Below are positions 1,982 through 11,037 of a stretch of DNA of 11,037 nucleotides, in pieces. Origin of the DNA: a virus (taxonomy: Duplodnaviria; Heunggongvirae; Uroviricota; Caudoviricetes); IMG/VR virus record IMGVR_UViG_2778261674_000010. One strand, written 5' to 3'. How positions within the stretch are numbered: the first letter of the stretch is position 1; every line of letters starts with the position of its first letter. The notes below the pieces were generated by a model, which was given only the letters and a program-made list of their open reading frames with translations, was not told the DNA's origin and did no database searches. The translations under genes were made by a program, and so were the position numbers.

Positions 1982-3217
1982 CTACGATAACCGCGCATTC
2001 AACATGGCTATCTGTTCGTCGTTCATGTCATCAATCCACATACCGTAAATTTCATACACCATCTGCGCAGTTTCATGCCCCATTTGGCTGGCTATAAATG
2101 CCGGGTTCGCTCCTGCCGTCAACAGCCAGCAGGCAAAAGTATGCCGCGTATGGTACGGATTACGGCGGCGAATACCAGCACGTTTTACTGCTGCATTCCA
2201 CCTTGCCCCCAAACTGCTTACCGAGTAATAAGGTTTTTGTTTTCCGTTACACACCCTGGGCATGAAAACAAAATGCAGTTTTTGCTTTTCGGTTCTGCCG
2301 TACTCCCGATGATAAAAGGTGATTTCGCTTTTGCGATGATGCCCGGTCAGTTTGTATTGCTCCTTCAGTGCTTCAAGAGCAGGCTGCAGTAGTGTTACTG
2401 TTCGGATCCCGGCATTTGTTTTTGGGGGACCGAACATATCAAGTATCGTCAGGTTTCTTCTGACATTCACTATTCCCTTTTCGAGATCCACATCCTCCCA
2501 CGCCAGAGCTGCCAGTTCCCCGTGACGAAGTCCTGAGTAAACGGCAAATTTCCACAAGTTCTGGCTCTGTCCTTTTTCACTTTCCATTAATGCATTGAAT
2601 TCTGTTTTAGATAACGGATCAGGCTTTATTCTGTTTCGCTGTAATTTTTTTACTCCTTCAAATGGTTTGGTTGATATAAATCCCGACTGATACGCAAAAC
2701 GCAACAGCGAACAGAGCAGGGCGATATAGTTATCAACTGTGCGCACGGTTCTTCCTTTTTTGTTGGATCTTGGATTATCCAGGTAAAGCGTTTCTCCATG
2801 CAGCAGTTCATTCCGGTAGTTTAAGATATCGCTATAACGAATATGTGATATCGGGGTACTTTCACAAATTATTATTCTGAGTGTTTTTAATTGTGATTTC
2901 GTTTTCTTCATTGTGTTTGTTGTTAACTCTGTCTCTTTAATTTTTGTCCAGATATCACAAAGCTCTCCGAACGTTTTTATGACTCTCGTTGTCACCATTT
3001 TTGCCCCAGTGCTGGACTGGGGAAAACGTCTTAAATACTCAAATTCACCGGAGTTTATTTCATGAACTATCAGCGCTCTTAAATTTCCGGCCTTTTTAAT
3101 ATTACTGTTTGTAATCTCCCAGCCTTTTAATGTTTCCCGACATCGTTTTCCTCGAAACATGAACCAGATGCGAATGTATCTACCTCTAATCTCGACACCT
3201 GTTGGTAATTTAGACAT
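1982..3217 (-). CDS. intR: Rac prophage tyrosine integrase
   Basis: 411-aa ORF beginning MSKLPTGVEIRGRYIRIWF. C-terminal catalytic region carries tyrosine-recombinase signatures (LRHGELAAL, HTRHTFA, a C-terminal Tyr in VYEIYG). ATG at 3217..3215, immediately downstream of the xisR stop (3219-3221). Confidence 0.93.
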   Translation of the reverse strand: MSKLPTGVEIRGRYIRIWFMFRGKRCRETLKGWEITNSNIKKAGNLRALIVHEINSGEFEYLRRFPQSSTGAKMVTTRVIKTFGELCDIWTKIKETELTTNTMKKTKSQLKTLRIIICESTPISHIRYSDILNYRNELLHGETLYLDNPRSNKKGRTVRTVDNYIALLCSLLRFAYQSGFISTKPFEGVKKLQRNRIKPDPLSKTEFNALMESEKGQSQNLWKFAVYSGLRHGELAALAWEDVDLEKGIVNVRRNLTILDMFGPPKTNAGIRTVTLLQPALEALKEQYKLTGHHRKSEITFYHREYGRTEKQKLHFVFMPRVCNGKQKPYYSVSSLGARWNAAVKRAGIRRRNPYHTRHTFACWLLTAGANPAFIASQMGHETAQMVYEIYGMWIDDMNDEQIAMLNARLS

Positions 3218-3434: not shown

Positions 3435-3485
3435 CGCATCACCTCTGGCAGGCGCCAATGTTAGACTGAAATTGACGCCCGATGT

Positions 3486-3501
3486 TGATTATTAATAATC
3501 A
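3486..3501. promoter_or_regulatory. 16-bp perfect AT-rich palindrome TGATTATTAATAATCA upstream of xisR-intR
   Basis: Exact dyad symmetry seen directly in the sequence, 52-67 bp upstream of the xisR start in the ydaC-xisR gap. Function is inferred only (candidate binding site for a regulator of xis-int or a nucleoid protein). Confidence 0.3.
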
Positions 3502-3512
3502 GCTATGAAGTT

Positions 3513-3722
3513 TTAATTTGAATACAATGCAATTCTCGAGGACTGAAGTTTCTCGCAATTAAAATTTATCAGTTTTACTTTCTGCTCTCTGGAAACGCCT
3601 GCTTCTTTTTTACCTGAGAGCATTTTTTCGCATTCTGATTTCGTTAGTTTAGATTTTGAATATCTTGTCCAGTTAGTAGGAGTGCCACCTTCCTTTTCAA
3701 TAGTGGCGGTAATTTTATACAT
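3513..3722 (-). CDS. ydaC: Rac prophage small protein YdaC (function unknown)
   Basis: 69 aa from the ATG at 3722..3720: MYKITATIEKEGGTPTNWTRYSKSKLTKSECEKMLSGKKEAGVSREQKVKLINFNCEKLQSSRIALYSN. A strong SD GGAGGTG sits inside the last codons of ralR. Overlaps ralR by 8 nt. Confidence 0.8.
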   Translation of the reverse strand: MYKITATIEKEGGTPTNWTRYSKSKLTKSECEKMLSGKKEAGVSREQKVKLINFNCEKLQSSRIALYSN

Positions 3723-7990: not shown

Positions 7991-8211
7991 CACCATGACT
8001 CCGCCTTTACAGGTAAACCATCACGACCGAGGAAGACTTTAATCATGCGGTCAGTAATGAATGTTTTTGTGGTCAGGTTACGAATATATAGTTTTCGCTT
8101 TTTAATATTGTTTGCCGAGGCAATATATGTCCGGCCTTCATGAAGAACATAATCGCCAGGAGTCACACACTGACGTGGTATTTCATCAGTTCCGAAGTGA
8201 TGTGCAATCAT
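7990..8211 (-). CDS. kilR: KilR (Rac Kil protein, cell-division/FtsZ inhibitor)
   Basis: 73 aa from the ATG at 8211..8209: [79 protein letters not shown] about 7 nt upstream. The ATG at 8223 in the ORF track has no SD. Confidence 0.85.
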
Positions 8212-8652
8212 AATTATCTCCATTTTTACAAATGAACTTTGTTGATGCGGTGTCTGGTGCCTCCAGGTGACTGCAACCAGTTAACAATTACAGTCGGCTT
8301 TCCCACCCAAACCAATAAGGACTAACATGACTTTTAACTGTGCCACGTGCGCTTAGCCGCATTCACCGCATCACAAAATTCACTTTAAAAAGGGCGGACA
8401 TCAGCCGAACTTCAAGAAAAAAACTGATGCCGCCAGGACTACACACAGCAATGTCGTTATTTACAACCGGAGGCGCACTCCCTCCATTTAAATTTAACAG
8501 ACAAGACCGACTCTTTATGGATATCGGAAATGCGCCTTCGTGTTGTGCCCGGTTTTATTTCACCACCTCCGGGCTTCGGTGGTCTCGGCTATACCCCTAC
8601 AGCGAGAGCTTGTGTTAACATTTCAATACCCTTACAGTTGAGAGTTATTGAT

Positions 8653-9141
8653 ATGTTGGATGTATTTACTCCATTGTTGAAACTTTTTGCTAACGAGCCA
8701 CTCGAAAGACTTATGTATACGATTATCATTTTTGGTCTCACTCTCTGGCTGATACCGAAAGAGTTTACTGTCGCATTCAATGCTTATACTGAAATACCTT
8801 GGCTCTTTCAGATTATCGTTTTTGCCTTTTCTTTCGTGGTCGCCATTTCCTTCTCAAGATTGCGAGCACATATTCAAAAGCATTATTCATTACTACCAGA
8901 GCAACGAGTATTGCTTCGTTTATCTGAGAAAGAAATCGCTGTATTTAAAGATTTCCTTAAAACAGGAAATCTTATTATCACTTCTCCTTGCCGTAACCCG
9001 GTTATGAAAAAATTAGAACGGAAGGGCATCATTCAACATCAGAGTGATAGCGCAAACTGTTCTTATTATCTCGTCACCGAAAAATACTCCCATTTTATGA
9101 AGTTATTCTGGAACAGCAGGAGTAGACGTTTTAATCGTTAG
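8653..9141 (+). CDS. sieB: Superinfection exclusion protein SieB
   Basis: 162 aa from the ATG at 8653: MLDVFTPLLKLFANEPLERLMYTIIIFGLTLWLIPKEF..., with two hydrophobic segments (membrane protein). The 203-aa ORF-track version begins 41 codons upstream without support. The stop TAG (9139-9141) overlaps the convergent ydaF stop. Confidence 0.85.
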   Translation: MLDVFTPLLKLFANEPLERLMYTIIIFGLTLWLIPKEFTVAFNAYTEIPWLFQIIVFAFSFVVAISFSRLRAHIQKHYSLLPEQRVLLRLSEKEIAVFKDFLKTGNLIITSPCRNPVMKKLERKGIIQHQSDSANCSYYLVTEKYSHFMKLFWNSRSRRFNR

Positions 9142-9293
9142 CTTACTGTGTGCTTCTCCAACCATCGGCGCGCACCAGTTTCGGTTTTAAATGTTTTGCT
9201 TTTGGTATACGTCATGGCAGTGAACGTTCCATCCTGGTTGGGGAACACGCCGCACACCAGGGATTCGTTGTTGCCGAGATCGATTTTTTGCAT
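9138..9293 (-). CDS. ydaF: Small protein YdaF (function unknown)
   Basis: Hand translation from the ATG at 9293..9291 gives 51 aa: MQKIDLGNNESLVCGVFPNQDGTFTAMTYTKSKTFKTETGARRWLEKHTVS, stop TAA at 9140..9138. Starts 10 nt downstream of the ydaG stop (operon arrangement). Confidence 0.7.
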   Translation of the reverse strand: MQKIDLGNNESLVCGVFPNQDGTFTAMTYTKSKTFKTETGARRWLEKHTVS

Positions 9294-9303
9294 TTTGCGA
9301 ATC

Positions 9304-9438
9304 TCACATCTTGTTGCTACGTATAGCGACTTCTGCCTGCCAGAGATCCCAGTCGTTGCTGCGTAAAGCCTGCACAGCCTGGTTGTAAGTGATACCGCAA
9401 CAATCCATCAAATACTGAACTACTTCGTAATGCACCAT
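9304..9438 (-). CDS. ydaG: Small protein YdaG (function unknown)
   Basis: Hand translation from the ATG at 9438..9436 gives 44 aa: MVHYEVVQYLMDCCGITYNQAVQALRSNDWDLWQAEVAIRSNKM. Strong SD AGGGGAGAG 5-6 nt upstream. Confidence 0.7.
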   Translation of the reverse strand: MVHYEVVQYLMDCCGITYNQAVQALRSNDWDLWQAEVAIRSNKM

Positions 9439-9602
9439 CTTATCTCTCCCCTTAACGCCGGGTGGCGGAACTAACTGCTGCACTGCAAAATTTGAATCCC
9501 GCCGTCATGTTCTTACGCCTCGGGCTGGCTACTTAACCCCTGACCACTGCCTGGTAACTCGAAGTATTGCCCTGCATTCTGTGGGGCGGGGTGGGTGGCA
9601 GG

Positions 9603-9655
9603 CATATAATGTACTTTGTGTTCATTGTTGTAAAGTACATTTAGTACATTTTATG
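9603..9655. promoter_or_regulatory. Putative OL-like operator/promoter cluster downstream of racR and upstream of ydaG-ydaF
   Basis: ATGTACT at 9609-9615 and its reverse complement AGTACAT at 9634-9640 and 9643-9649. The first two form a 9-bp inverted repeat (ATGTACTTT / AAAGTACAT) with a 14-bp spacer; the last two are tandem at 9-bp spacing. Candidate minus-strand promoter: -35 TTTACA (9634..9629), 17-bp spacer, -10 CATTAT (9611..9606). A plus-strand TATAAT sits at 9605-9610. The same 7-mer recurs in the racR-ydaS region. Confidence 0.45.
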
Positions 9656-9724
9656 TGTAAAAAAATGAGATGGGATAAAGTGAAGCACAAACCCGGAGGA
9701 AGGCGCTACCGGATTTATGCTGGT

Positions 9725-10144
9725 TTAAGAGGCTTTTTGTTTTTTCTTTCGTGCTAACTCTTCGTAAATTGCATTGTACTTCTGTTTTTTCTCTTCAAGA
9801 GTTTTTAAAAGTTCATCTGTCTCACTGTCAGGGAGCTCGTCCAGAAGGTCAATGATGATTTTTTGTCTTGGATTTAACTCCTGATAGAAACGTACCTGTC
9901 CACTTTCTTCTGTATCCTCTCCCAAAAGATAGGTTGGTGTTGTTCCTATTAGTGTTGCTAATTCCCTTAATTTCTCCCGGCGAGGAATTGTTTCGCCATT
10001 AAACCATTTGCTAACCGCTTTTGGTGTTAATTTCATTCGACGGGCAATTTCTGCCTGCCTTCCATGTTGTTCATAACCAGCGTTTTCACAGGCTAGCGCA
10101 AGCCTACTGGCGAACTCTTTACGCGCTTTATCTTCATGAACCAT
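9725..10144 (-). CDS. racR: RacR, cI-like prophage repressor (XRE-family helix-turn-helix)
   Basis: 139 aa from the ATG at 10144..10142: MVHEDKARKEFASRLALACENAGYEQHGRQAEIARRMKLTPKAVSKWFNGETIPRREKLRELATLIGTTPTYLLGE..., with an N-terminal HTH. No SD upstream; a candidate -10 TATCAT ends 7 nt before the ATG, which suggests a leaderless mRNA. Start codon is uncertain: I recall a longer annotated product, but the upstream in-frame codons contain no ATG, GTG or TTG. Confidence 0.85.
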   Translation of the reverse strand: MVHEDKARKEFASRLALACENAGYEQHGRQAEIARRMKLTPKAVSKWFNGETIPRREKLRELATLIGTTPTYLLGEDTEESGQVRFYQELNPRQKIIIDLLDELPDSETDELLKTLEEKKQKYNAIYEELARKKKQKAS

Positions 10145-10223
10145 AAGTTCAATGATATTCGCTCTTGAATGTACTGTCAGTTCTGTTATAGCATGTACTC
10201 AAAGTTCACATTGTGAGGGTGAT
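10145..10223. promoter_or_regulatory. Divergent racR/ydaS promoter-operator region (OR-like immunity switch)
   Basis: Candidate ydaS promoter (+): -35 TTGAAT 10165-10170, 16-bp spacer, TGtTATAGC extended -10 at 10184-10192. Candidate racR promoter (-): -35 CTGACA (10180..10175), 17-bp spacer, -10 TATCAT (10157..10152). Direct repeats of ATGTACT at 10169-10175 and 10193-10199 overlap these elements; AAGTTCA repeats at 10145-10151 and 10202-10208. Confidence 0.5.
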
Positions 10224-10478
10224 ATGAACCAGAAAACACTTGAAGATGTAATCAAAACTGTTCGCGTTGCTGTTGTGGCCGACGTTTGTGGTGTCAGCCA
10301 AAGAGCAATCTATAAATGGATGGATAACGGAAAATTGCCTCGCACAGAATATACCGGCGAAACAAATTACGCTGAAAAAATCGCTCTTGCATCAAACGGA
10401 TTATTTTCTGCCGATGCAATTTTAACTATTGGCAGGAATAAAACTACTACGAAAAAGCTGATGGGAGTTGATTCATGA
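10224..10478 (+). CDS. ydaS: YdaS, Cro-like HTH protein (reported toxic when derepressed)
   Basis: 84 aa from the ATG at 10224: MNQKTLEDVIKTVRVAVVADVCGVSQRAIYKWMDNGKLP..., with HTH (VSQRAIYKWMDNGK). SD GAGGG 5 nt upstream. The ORF-track ATG at 10152 lies within the promoter and has no SD. Stop overlaps the ydaT start (ATGA). Confidence 0.8.
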   Translation: MNQKTLEDVIKTVRVAVVADVCGVSQRAIYKWMDNGKLPRTEYTGETNYAEKIALASNGLFSADAILTIGRNKTTTKKLMGVDS

Positions 10479-10900
10479 AAATCAAGCATGAACACATCCG
10501 CATGGCGATGAATGCCTGGGCGCATCCGGACGGCGAAAAAGTACCGGCTGCGAAAATTACCAAAGCGTATTTCGAGCTGGGAATGACGTTCCCGGAACTG
10601 TATGACGACAGCCATCCGGAAGCCCTGGCTCGCAATACTCAGAAAATTTTCCGCTGGGTGGAGAAAGACACCCCTGATGCGGTTAAAAAAATTCAGGCGT
10701 TGTTACCAGCTATCGAAAAAGCAATGCCACCTCTGCTGGTGGCCCGAATGCGCAGTCATAGCTCAGCCTATTTTCGGGAACTAGTGGAGACGCGGGAACG
10801 ACTGGTGAGAGACGCTGATGATTTTGTCGCAGTGGCGATCGCTGGTTTCAACCAGATGAATCGTGGTGGCCCTGCAGGAAATATTGTGGCTGTGCATTGA
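10475..10900 (+). CDS. ydaT: YdaT (reported CII-like/toxic protein of the Rac immunity region)
   Basis: 141-aa ORF beginning MKIKHEHIRMAMNAWAHPDGEKVPAAKITKAYFELGMTFPELYDD. SD GGGAG 7 nt upstream. Translationally coupled to ydaS. Confidence 0.85.
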   Translation: MKIKHEHIRMAMNAWAHPDGEKVPAAKITKAYFELGMTFPELYDDSHPEALARNTQKIFRWVEKDTPDAVKKIQALLPAIEKAMPPLLVARMRSHSSAYFRELVETRERLVRDADDFVAVAIAGFNQMNRGGPAGNIVAVH

Positions 10901-10971
10901 CTCGCAATATTCATACCGGATCGCTTCCGGCAATTTGTGAGTAAAAAGATTCGGTATCAAAAGAGGTGAGT

Positions 10972-11037
10972 ATGGCTAACGCCTGGCTCAGATTATGGCA
11001 TGACATGCCAAATGACCCTAAGTGGCGAACAATTGCC
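10972..11037 (+). CDS. ydaU: 5' end of the next rightward gene (probably ydaU); truncated by the window end
   Basis: ATG at 10972 preceded by AAGAGGTGAG; encodes MANAWLRLWHDMPNDPKWRTIA up to the window end. Symbol assigned from gene order and partial recall only. Confidence 0.5.
   Translation, partial: MANAWLRLWHDMPNDPKWRTIA

Follow-up and report, generated by a model that had tools for sequence, protein, structure and literature searches.

The C-terminal domain of CI, the repressor of phage HK022, mediates dimerisation and cooperativity. The sequence records of phages HK022 (X16093) and HK75 annotate, to the left in the immunity region, pL -10, oL1, pL -35 and oL2, and to the right oR3, pR -35, oR2, pR -10 and oR1. 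A passage in PMC8053113, which cites Carlson and Little 1993, describes cooperative binding of HK022 CI to adjacent OL/OR operators and looping between OL and OR. For a Rac-like prophage, PL and OL have been shown experimentally in CP-933P, where repression was demonstrated with reporters (PMC8630535). Short repressors of the Gifsy type are known to be inactivated by antirepressors (PMC3121763). In the Rac prophage of E. coli K-12, the repressor RacR recognises TTAGGC-N3-GCCTAA (PMC9638921). It has been reported that on lowering of RacR ydaF, ydaG, ydaE and racC go up about 40-fold, and kilR, ydaC and ralA more than 70-fold (PMC6765115). Loss of RacR raises the transcripts of ydaG, ydaF, kilR, recET and intR (PMC6765115; bioRxiv 10.64898/2026.09.06.749655), and CRISPRi against racR derepresses ydaG, kilR, recET, xisR and intR (bioRxiv 10.64898/2026.09.06.749655). 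Leftward transcription in K-12 Rac is limited by Rho (PMC4150792). The RacR regulon including ydaFG is stated as not yet characterised in detail, and these papers on RacR describe the racR-ydaS operators only, a PL/OL of K-12 Rac not being described there (PMC9638921, PMC11014345).

The present study concerns a stretch of 11,037 nucleotides of viral DNA (IMG/VR record IMGVR_UViG_2778261674_000010), referred to here, at its full length, as the window. A first-pass annotation had noticed a repeated 7-mer, ATGTACT/AGTACAT, clustered at 9603-9655 downstream of a gene that it called racR, and had proposed a lambda-like layout with OL-type sites on one side of the repressor gene and OR-type sites on the other. 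Our comparison with HK022 and with related prophages indicates, with a probability of roughly 0.9, that 9603-9655 would comprise OL1, OL2 and PL of a lambdoid Rac-like prophage carrying an immunity cassette of the HK022 operator family.

Results

The 7-mer counts were found to be as annotated. Three copies lie in 9603-9655 and two in the gap between the repressor and cro-like genes (9609 plus, 9634 minus, 9643 minus, 10169 plus and 10193 plus), which makes five on both strands of the 11,037-base window as against 0.98 expected. The 7-mer is confined to these two clusters, with zero further copies in the whole 11 kb. Enrichment within the window was checked by the 7-mer count together with dinucleotide-preserving shuffles, and none of 200 shuffles reached five copies. 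The inverted pair is also real; its arms (9608-9617 and 9632-9641) are 10 nt long, not 9 bp as first given, and are 100% complementary. The tandem copy at 9-bp spacing exists (AGTACATTT at 9634 and at 9643) but it is not a separate site. Because the GTAC core is self-complementary, the two copies are simply both halves of one operator, OL2.

When phage genomes were searched with a sensitive method, 9601-10209 could be aligned with the immunity regions of HK022, HK75 and O276. The alignment to the annotated HK022 operators is gapless, and thus the true recognition unit is not the 7-mer, as had been supposed, but a 15-bp dyad, TGWAC-N5-GTWCA, whose 5-bp half-sites are conserved. The 7-mer amounts to a half-site in its TGTAC variant, extended by one base at either end. 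When up to one mismatch is allowed, seven dyads are counted in the window against 1.13 expected, a number reached in 0 of 200 shuffles, and the three perfect copies of the dyad in the window are all inside the immunity region. The right side carries three dyads (OR1-3) and not two; OR3 at 10137-10151 is without the 7-mer, and it was overlooked in the first-pass annotation because its half-site is TGAAC. The operators and promoters of the immunity region are given below.

9606..9634, minus strand: PL candidate from the promoter scan, -35 TTTACA (9634..9629), 17-bp spacer, -10 CATTAT (9611..9606)
9610..9624, no strand: OL1, 15-bp dyad TGTACTTTGTGTTCA, 0 mismatches to TGWAC-N5-GTWCA, aligns with the annotated HK022 oL1
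9634..9648, no strand: OL2, 15-bp dyad AGTACATTTAGTACA, 1 mismatch to the consensus, aligns with the annotated HK022/HK75 oL2
10137..10151, no strand: OR3, perfect palindrome TGAACCATAAGTTCA over the repressor start codon, 0 mismatches, identical to HK022 oR3/oR1
10152..10180, minus strand: candidate repressor-maintenance promoter from the promoter scan, CTGACA, 17-bp spacer, TATCAT, 10/12 matches
10164..10192, plus strand: PR candidate from alignment to HK022 pR, -35 TTGAAT (10164-10169), -10 TATAGC (10187-10192)
10170..10184, no strand: OR2, TGTACTGTCAGTTCT, 1 mismatch, aligns with HK022 oR2
10194..10208, no strand: OR1, TGTACTCAAAGTTCA, 0 mismatches, aligns with HK022 oR1

On the left side, 9601-9665 aligns with HK022 without gaps at 81.5% identity, and the 12 mismatches all lie outside the 20 half-site bases of OL. 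OL1 reads TGTACTTTGTGTTCA in the window and TGTACTTAAAGTTCA in HK022, and OL2 reads AGTACATTTAGTACA and AGTACCAATAGTACA, respectively. The minus-strand promoter that had been proposed to overlap the cluster was found as a sigma-70-like TTTACA-17-CATTAT, overlapped by both OL dyads. Its hexamers are moderate (9/12 matches) but they stand at the positions annotated as pL in the HK022 record X16093, the -35 being identical and the -10 differing by one base. OL1 spans the PL spacer and overlaps the -10 hexamer by 2 bp; OL2, 24 bp away from centre to centre, abuts the -35. PL points away from the repressor gene, which separates it from OR. Its start is predicted near 9599, where the conserved part of the leader described below begins. 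OL1 and OL2 share one consensus, TGWAC-N5-GTWCA, with OR1-3.

On the right side, the centre of OR2 is 24 bp from that of OR1 and 33 bp from that of OR3. Thus, the dyad itself, the -35 TTTACA and the 24-bp (O1-O2) and 33-bp (OR2-OR3) spacings are common to the window and HK022, HK75 and O276, and OR3 lies over the repressor start codon in HK022 as well. The hexamers of HK022 pR are TTGACT and CATAAT. The PR candidate is absent from the consensus promoter scan because its -10 ends in C; this hexamer, TATAGC, follows a TG and does not end in the usually invariant T. Among relatives the OR region has few polymorphisms, and these cluster at 10190-10193, in or adjoining the PR -10, and one of them, C to T at 10192, would improve this hexamer. 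It was also observed that near-identical 11-mers hold both start codons, ATGAACCATAA at 10136-10146 for the repressor and ATGAACCAGAA at 10224-10234 for the cro-like gene. The former is the left half of OR3, and the latter may be a relic half-site. The distance between OL and OR is 584 bp. From the position of the maintenance promoter in the window, the repressor mRNA would be leaderless or near-leaderless; leaderless transcripts have been reported for K-12 racR and paaR2 (PMC9638921, PMC8630535).

The genes between OL and OR and to the right of OR are as follows.

9725..10144, minus strand: prophage repressor of 139 aa, with an HK022-CI-like HTH, a linker and a helical C-terminal domain (identity to HK022 CI, Pfam and model)
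10224..10478, plus strand: Cro-like gene, 84 aa, 60% identity to HK022 Cro over 73 residues, E = 1e-33
10475..10900, plus strand: YdaT-family (CII-analogue) gene, Pfam PF06254 and annotation

The repressor shows 47% identity to HK022 CI over its first 99 residues (E = 6e-32), and the recognition-helix stretch is almost unchanged, TPKAVSKWFNGETIPRR as compared to TPKAISKWFNGESIPRK in HK022 CI. Among repressor homologues that keep the half-sites the recognition-helix region is invariant. Pfam finds HTH_3 only, and no Peptidase_S24 domain was found by Pfam in the 139-aa protein, whereas HK022 CI matches PF00717. In the AlphaFold model (pLDDT 82.5) a five-helix HTH domain (1-74) is followed by a disordered linker (77-86) and two C-terminal helices (92-138), and a fold search with this model returned only generic XRE, SinR-like neighbours. 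An identical protein, annotated 'CI repressor', is present in phage Tritos, which carries the whole cassette with 97% DNA identity.

The helical C-terminal domain (9725-9870, residues about 90-139) also occurs in heteroimmune repressors. That of locus L123 (6597-6953), whose operators are TACC-N4-GGTA, is 39.5% identical over residues 28-139, and that of locus L191 (1372-1521) is 72% identical over residues 90-139 only. Such a distribution suggests that DNA-binding and tail domains are shuffled between repressors. Separately, the window was scanned for YdaT/CII-type boxes with the consensus TTGATT-N6-AATCAA from PMC9986795. There are two matches against 0.07 expected, and 0 of 200 shuffles reach two. 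The perfect box, at 10468-10485, covers both the cro-like stop and the ydaT start and is thereby placed like lambda PRE. The box with one mismatch, at 3485-3502, precedes the xis-like ORF and intR by a short distance and is placed like lambda PI.

It could be argued that the sites serve mainly the Cro-like protein or some other factor and not the repressor. Cro-type proteins of lambda, HK022 and CP-933P do bind the operators of the repressor (PMC8630535), and the Cro-like protein is 60% identical to HK022 Cro, as listed above. However, binding of Cro is compatible with binding of the repressor, and it is the recognition-helix region of the repressor that does not vary where half-sites are kept; with regard to another factor, the YdaT/CII-type box is a different motif and is located elsewhere. 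A role mainly for a protein other than the repressor is, in our opinion, improbable.

The OL block was compared in 81 loci that encode a 99-100% identical repressor (80 IMG/VR contigs and one Shigella genome); a search of a genome contig collection for related loci returned one locus. There are 30 haplotypes of the OL block among the 81 loci, and the variation avoids the half-sites.

Half-site columns (20): 4 polymorphic, all singletons or doubletons, mean minor-allele count 0.25
Spacer columns (10): 8 polymorphic, mean minor-allele count 10.1
Flanking columns (36): 13 polymorphic, mean minor-allele count 3.75

Polymorphic columns are thus 4/20 in half-sites versus 8/10 in spacers (Fisher p = 0.004) and common polymorphisms 0/20 versus 6/10 (p = 3.5e-4), these p-values being descriptive only because the sequences are related. 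In OL2 the spacer (9639-9643) is polymorphic while the half-sites are conserved. The -35 hexamer of PL is essentially invariant among the relatives, and the -10 is either CATTAT or, as in HK022, CATCAT. The OR region (10125-10224) compared with OL (9600-9665) in 81-82 loci falls into 15 haplotypes, and 52 loci have the same sequence as the window. The unusual polymorphism of the OL spacers and flanks may reflect recombination at a module junction.

The same comparison bears on the possibility that the inverted repeat 9608-9617/9632-9641 is an RNA hairpin, a terminator or stabiliser at the 3' end of the repressor transcript. It is a perfect 10-nt repeat on the transcribed strand, 84-117 nt downstream of the repressor stop. 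But the repeat is AT-rich with a 14-nt loop and has no U-tract, and a terminator scan was negative. In most relatives position 9639 is T, which turns the middle copy of the 7-mer into AGTACTT, while its partner 9610 stays T, and the pairing is broken without compensation. The perfect 10-nt repeat and the middle 7-mer are therefore peculiar to the window haplotype, which counts against a hairpin. Conservation follows the dyad half-sites and not the arms, and the same dyads recur at OR. A hairpin is thus very improbable as the explanation of the cluster.

Further evidence that the dyads are operators came from more distant loci. A protein search gave diverged homologues of the repressor: an 89% variant, two from Salmonella (65% and 62%) and S24-type proteins from Raoultella and metagenomes. 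All of these (62-89% identity as well as S24-type) have retained three OR dyads with the 24/33-bp spacing, OR3 again lying on the start codon. In the five loci where the DNA reaches across the immunity region (L089, L090, L092, L093 and L096) two OL dyads are found 24 bp apart with TTTACA between them. It should be noted here that some of these loci have cargo genes between the repressor gene and OL (L089 3053-3720, L090 3088-3755, L096 3308-4750), where lambda has rexAB. Salmonella has a HigB/HigA pair there and Raoultella a gene for a 480-aa AAA ATPase, and the OL pair is kept regardless.

The dyad has a frequency of 0.121 per kb in 1.06 Mb of related phage DNA, where each pair of dyads spaced by 24 bp is in a locus confirmed to encode this repressor, except L128, where the OL pair is about 150 bp from the locus end and the repressor gene would fall past the end of the sequence. 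Phages Evi and pPE4 have the same leftward leader, other repressors and no TGWAC-N5-GTWCA dyads. The L123 immunity type has TACC-N4-GGTA dyads on both sides, and both K-12 Rac and the L123 type have dyads of their own at the equivalent position, directly upstream of the common leader. The dyads are thus co-inherited with the repressor as one cassette, being present in diverged loci and absent in heteroimmune ones. As far as comparison of loci goes, this three-way covariation of repressor and site is the strongest experiment-free argument for OL function.

The relation to K-12 Rac was examined by megablast of 9100-10500 against complete E. coli genomes (5,426). Full-length matches with 98-99.9% identity were found in 645/5,426 genomes. 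The K-12 strains EMG2 and J53 match 9100-9598 only, so that the homology breaks at 9598/9599, immediately beside the motif cluster; the breakpoints of the immunity-cassette mosaic are 9598/9599 and about 10498. The best match, 99.9% identical by sequence and annotated in RefSeq, is strain 504838. Its gene order is recE, racC, ydaE, kilR, sieB, ydaF and a gene for a 44-aa phage protein (ydaG), as in K-12. These are followed by genes for a 139-aa 'helix-turn-helix domain-containing protein', an 84-aa HTH regulator and a YdaT-family protein, where K-12 has the 158-aa RacR and YdaS at the equivalent place. The prophage of strain 504838 is truncated on its right side. Similarity between the 139-aa protein and K-12 RacR is limited to an HTH stretch of 33 residues (E = 1e-4), and the gene taken for racR in the first-pass annotation therefore encodes a different, heteroimmune repressor.

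RacR-type operators (TAGGC-N3-GCCTA/TTAGGC-N3-GCCTAA) are absent from the immunity region of the window. A scan with the RacR motif gave one match with two mismatches, inside the repressor gene, which is below chance expectation. In K-12 EMG2 (locus L002) two RacR dyads, TAGGTAATGCCTA at 3013-3025 and TAGGCTATGCCTA at 3038-3050, were found downstream of racR. They flank and overlap a minus-strand promoter, TTGACA-17-TATAGT, with 11/12 matches (3009-3050). There are four further RacR dyads in the K-12 racR-ydaS gap, six in total against 1.4 expected, and 0 of 200 shuffles reach six. On this basis 3009-3050 of L002 is a candidate for the PL/OL of K-12 Rac, and the reported derepression of leftward genes in K-12 is what a repressor-controlled PL predicts.

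These comparisons leave practically no room for the idea that the cluster consists of K-12-type RacR sites forming a RacR OL. The gene order is as in K-12 Rac and ydaG, ydaF, sieB, kilR and recE are about 99% identical to K-12, which would speak for it, but the K-12 homology stops at 9598, the repressor is a different protein, TTAGGC-N3-GCCTAA is lacking from the immunity region and K-12 has RacR dyads of its own at the equivalent spot. A chance repeat without function has next to no probability either, for although short repeats are frequent in AT-rich DNA such as this, 0 of 200 shuffles reach the 7-mer or dyad counts, and the footprint and the homology to annotated operators stand against it.

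The leftward operon that begins at the PL candidate contains the following features.

9443..9598, minus strand: unannotated leader of about 150 nt, from the end of K-12 homology at 9598 and an nhmmer profile match at 9597..9443
9304..9438, minus strand: ydaG, first leftward gene, 44-aa 'phage protein' in the RefSeq annotation of strain 504838
9138..9293, minus strand: ydaF, 51-aa DUF1391 protein, from annotation and Pfam PF07151 (1.9e-28)

The leader is common to K-12 Rac, phages Tritos and Evi, Actinobacillus phage pPE4 and more than 120 IMG/VR contigs; of the 3,823 E. coli genomes matched by the 9100-10500 query, most are accounted for by its leader part. It is thus found with at least three heteroimmune Rac-like cassettes and in thousands of E. 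coli prophages. Its 5' end, at about PL +1, is rich in C and poor in G, and it contains a conserved ATG (9507..9505) with a Shine-Dalgarno-like GAGG 9 nt upstream. The uORF opened by this ATG runs for 18-20 aa or 4-7 aa, or is fused to the DUF1391 gene; in the 18-20-aa form its TAA stop overlaps the Shine-Dalgarno of the next gene. The idea of a conserved peptide was rejected because length and frame vary. An Rfam scan of the whole window gave no match in 9440-9700. A put-like RNA was considered as well, but the leader is unlike the HK75 putL/putR folds and its folding energy is no better than that of shuffles (z = 0.17). The consensus structure that RNAalifold derived from 103 unique leader variants was weak, and only one pair in it was clearly compensatory. 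The leader could not be aligned with HK022 left of the -10, and its profile has no match in HK022 or HK75. The leader occurs once per locus, a second copy being absent from all 206 loci searched, and therefore there is no nutR- or putR-like twin.

In a simple scan no intrinsic terminator was detected on the minus strand from PL to kilR. Several RNA matches were observed elsewhere in the window by Rfam. A DicF-like match (8392-8447, minus, 39.1 bits, below the gathering score of 48) and a sub-threshold STnc100-like match (8204-8390, minus) lie on the leftward strand between sieB and kilR, which resembles the dicF-dicB arrangement of Qin and Tritos. The RalA antitoxin sRNA (3538-3716, plus) is above the gathering score. 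A full IS10 RNA-OUT (10-79, plus), also above the gathering score, is at the left edge of the window, and thus a copy of IS10 abuts the prophage.

Discussion

The present study deals with a prophage in which a Rac-type backbone is joined to an immunity cassette of another kind. The lambda-like layout proposed in the first-pass annotation holds as far as OL on one side, OR on the other and PL toward ydaG-ydaF are concerned, on the strength of HK022 homology, the footprint and the relatives; the identification of the repressor as RacR does not. The reading of OL/PL as operators of the HK022 family, combined with a Rac-like backbone and a non-cleavable repressor and acting by standard lambdoid repression, is supported in substance. 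From sequence comparison we infer repressor binding, the transcript start and the extent of the PL transcript.

It could be envisaged that dimers of the 139-aa repressor recognise the 15-bp dyads TGWAC-N5-GTWCA, as would probably the Cro-like protein. Two dimers placed 24 bp apart at OL1 and OL2 would cover the -10/spacer and the -35 edge of PL. Occlusion of PL would shut off leftward early transcription, which would run from the leader to ydaG and ydaF and on toward kilR, recET and xis-int. At OR1-OR3 the repressor would shut off PR and regulate its own promoter. The preserved 24-bp spacing is what would suggest cooperativity and OL-OR looping over the 584 bp; since the repressor and HK022 CI have different C-terminal domains, cooperativity and looping are not transferable from HK022.

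With HK022 the locus shares a homologous repressor DNA-binding domain and Cro in addition to the operators. The differences are equally clear. HK022 CI has an S24 autocleavage/oligomerisation domain, and the repressor of the window has instead a helical tail of about 50 aa. OL3 and the far-right operator of HK022 were not found, as no dyad with up to two mismatches is present in 9649-9725 or 10209-11037. PL is followed by putL and nun in HK022 and by the Rac-type leader and ydaG-ydaF in the window, and the lambda-type cII is replaced in the window by a YdaT-type gene. CP-933P is similar in being a Rac-like cryptic prophage with a short repressor without a peptidase motif, a leaderless repressor mRNA, and OL operators and PL933P beyond the repressor operon (PMC8630535). 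On the other hand, the PaaR2/YdaS/YdaT system of CP-933P has repeats of operator consensus GTTTAGTAA and three OL sites (OL1-3), with a toxin-antitoxin pair between the repressor gene and OL. Gifsy-type prophages are alike in that they are lambdoid, carry recET and have repressors of about 136-139 aa that lack a cleavage motif (PMC3121763). K-12 Rac has in common with the window the backbone, gene order, leftward operon and leader from PL +1, and also the logic of OR dyads plus two dyads round a leftward promoter downstream of the repressor gene. It differs in the repressor, which is unrelated beyond the HTH, and in the operator, TAGGC-N3-GCCTA; the two cassettes are heteroimmune.

A more speculative proposal is that the leader is a cis-acting RNA control element and that, jointly, the HK022-type domain with a non-cleavable tail gives cross-immunity of the HK022 family. 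We consider this combination rather unlikely. If it were true, the leader, as a Rho attenuator or a uORF-coupled switch, would decide the readthrough from PL into kilR, recET and xis-int, and would replace N/nut or put in Rac-like phages; the cryptic prophage would be cross-immune to phages of the HK022 family without being SOS-inducible.

Exact coordinates are now given for OL1, OL2, PL and OR1-3. The locus is a trap for annotation, as the flanking genes look like Rac and the immunity cassette differs. Because the cassette is different, results obtained with K-12 RacR, such as the operator sequence and C-protein cross-talk, are not transferable to the approximately 12% of complete E. coli genomes that carry it. 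For K-12 itself, the PL/OL candidate of Rac would explain the switch-on of ydaG, kilR, recET and xis-int upon RacR depletion.
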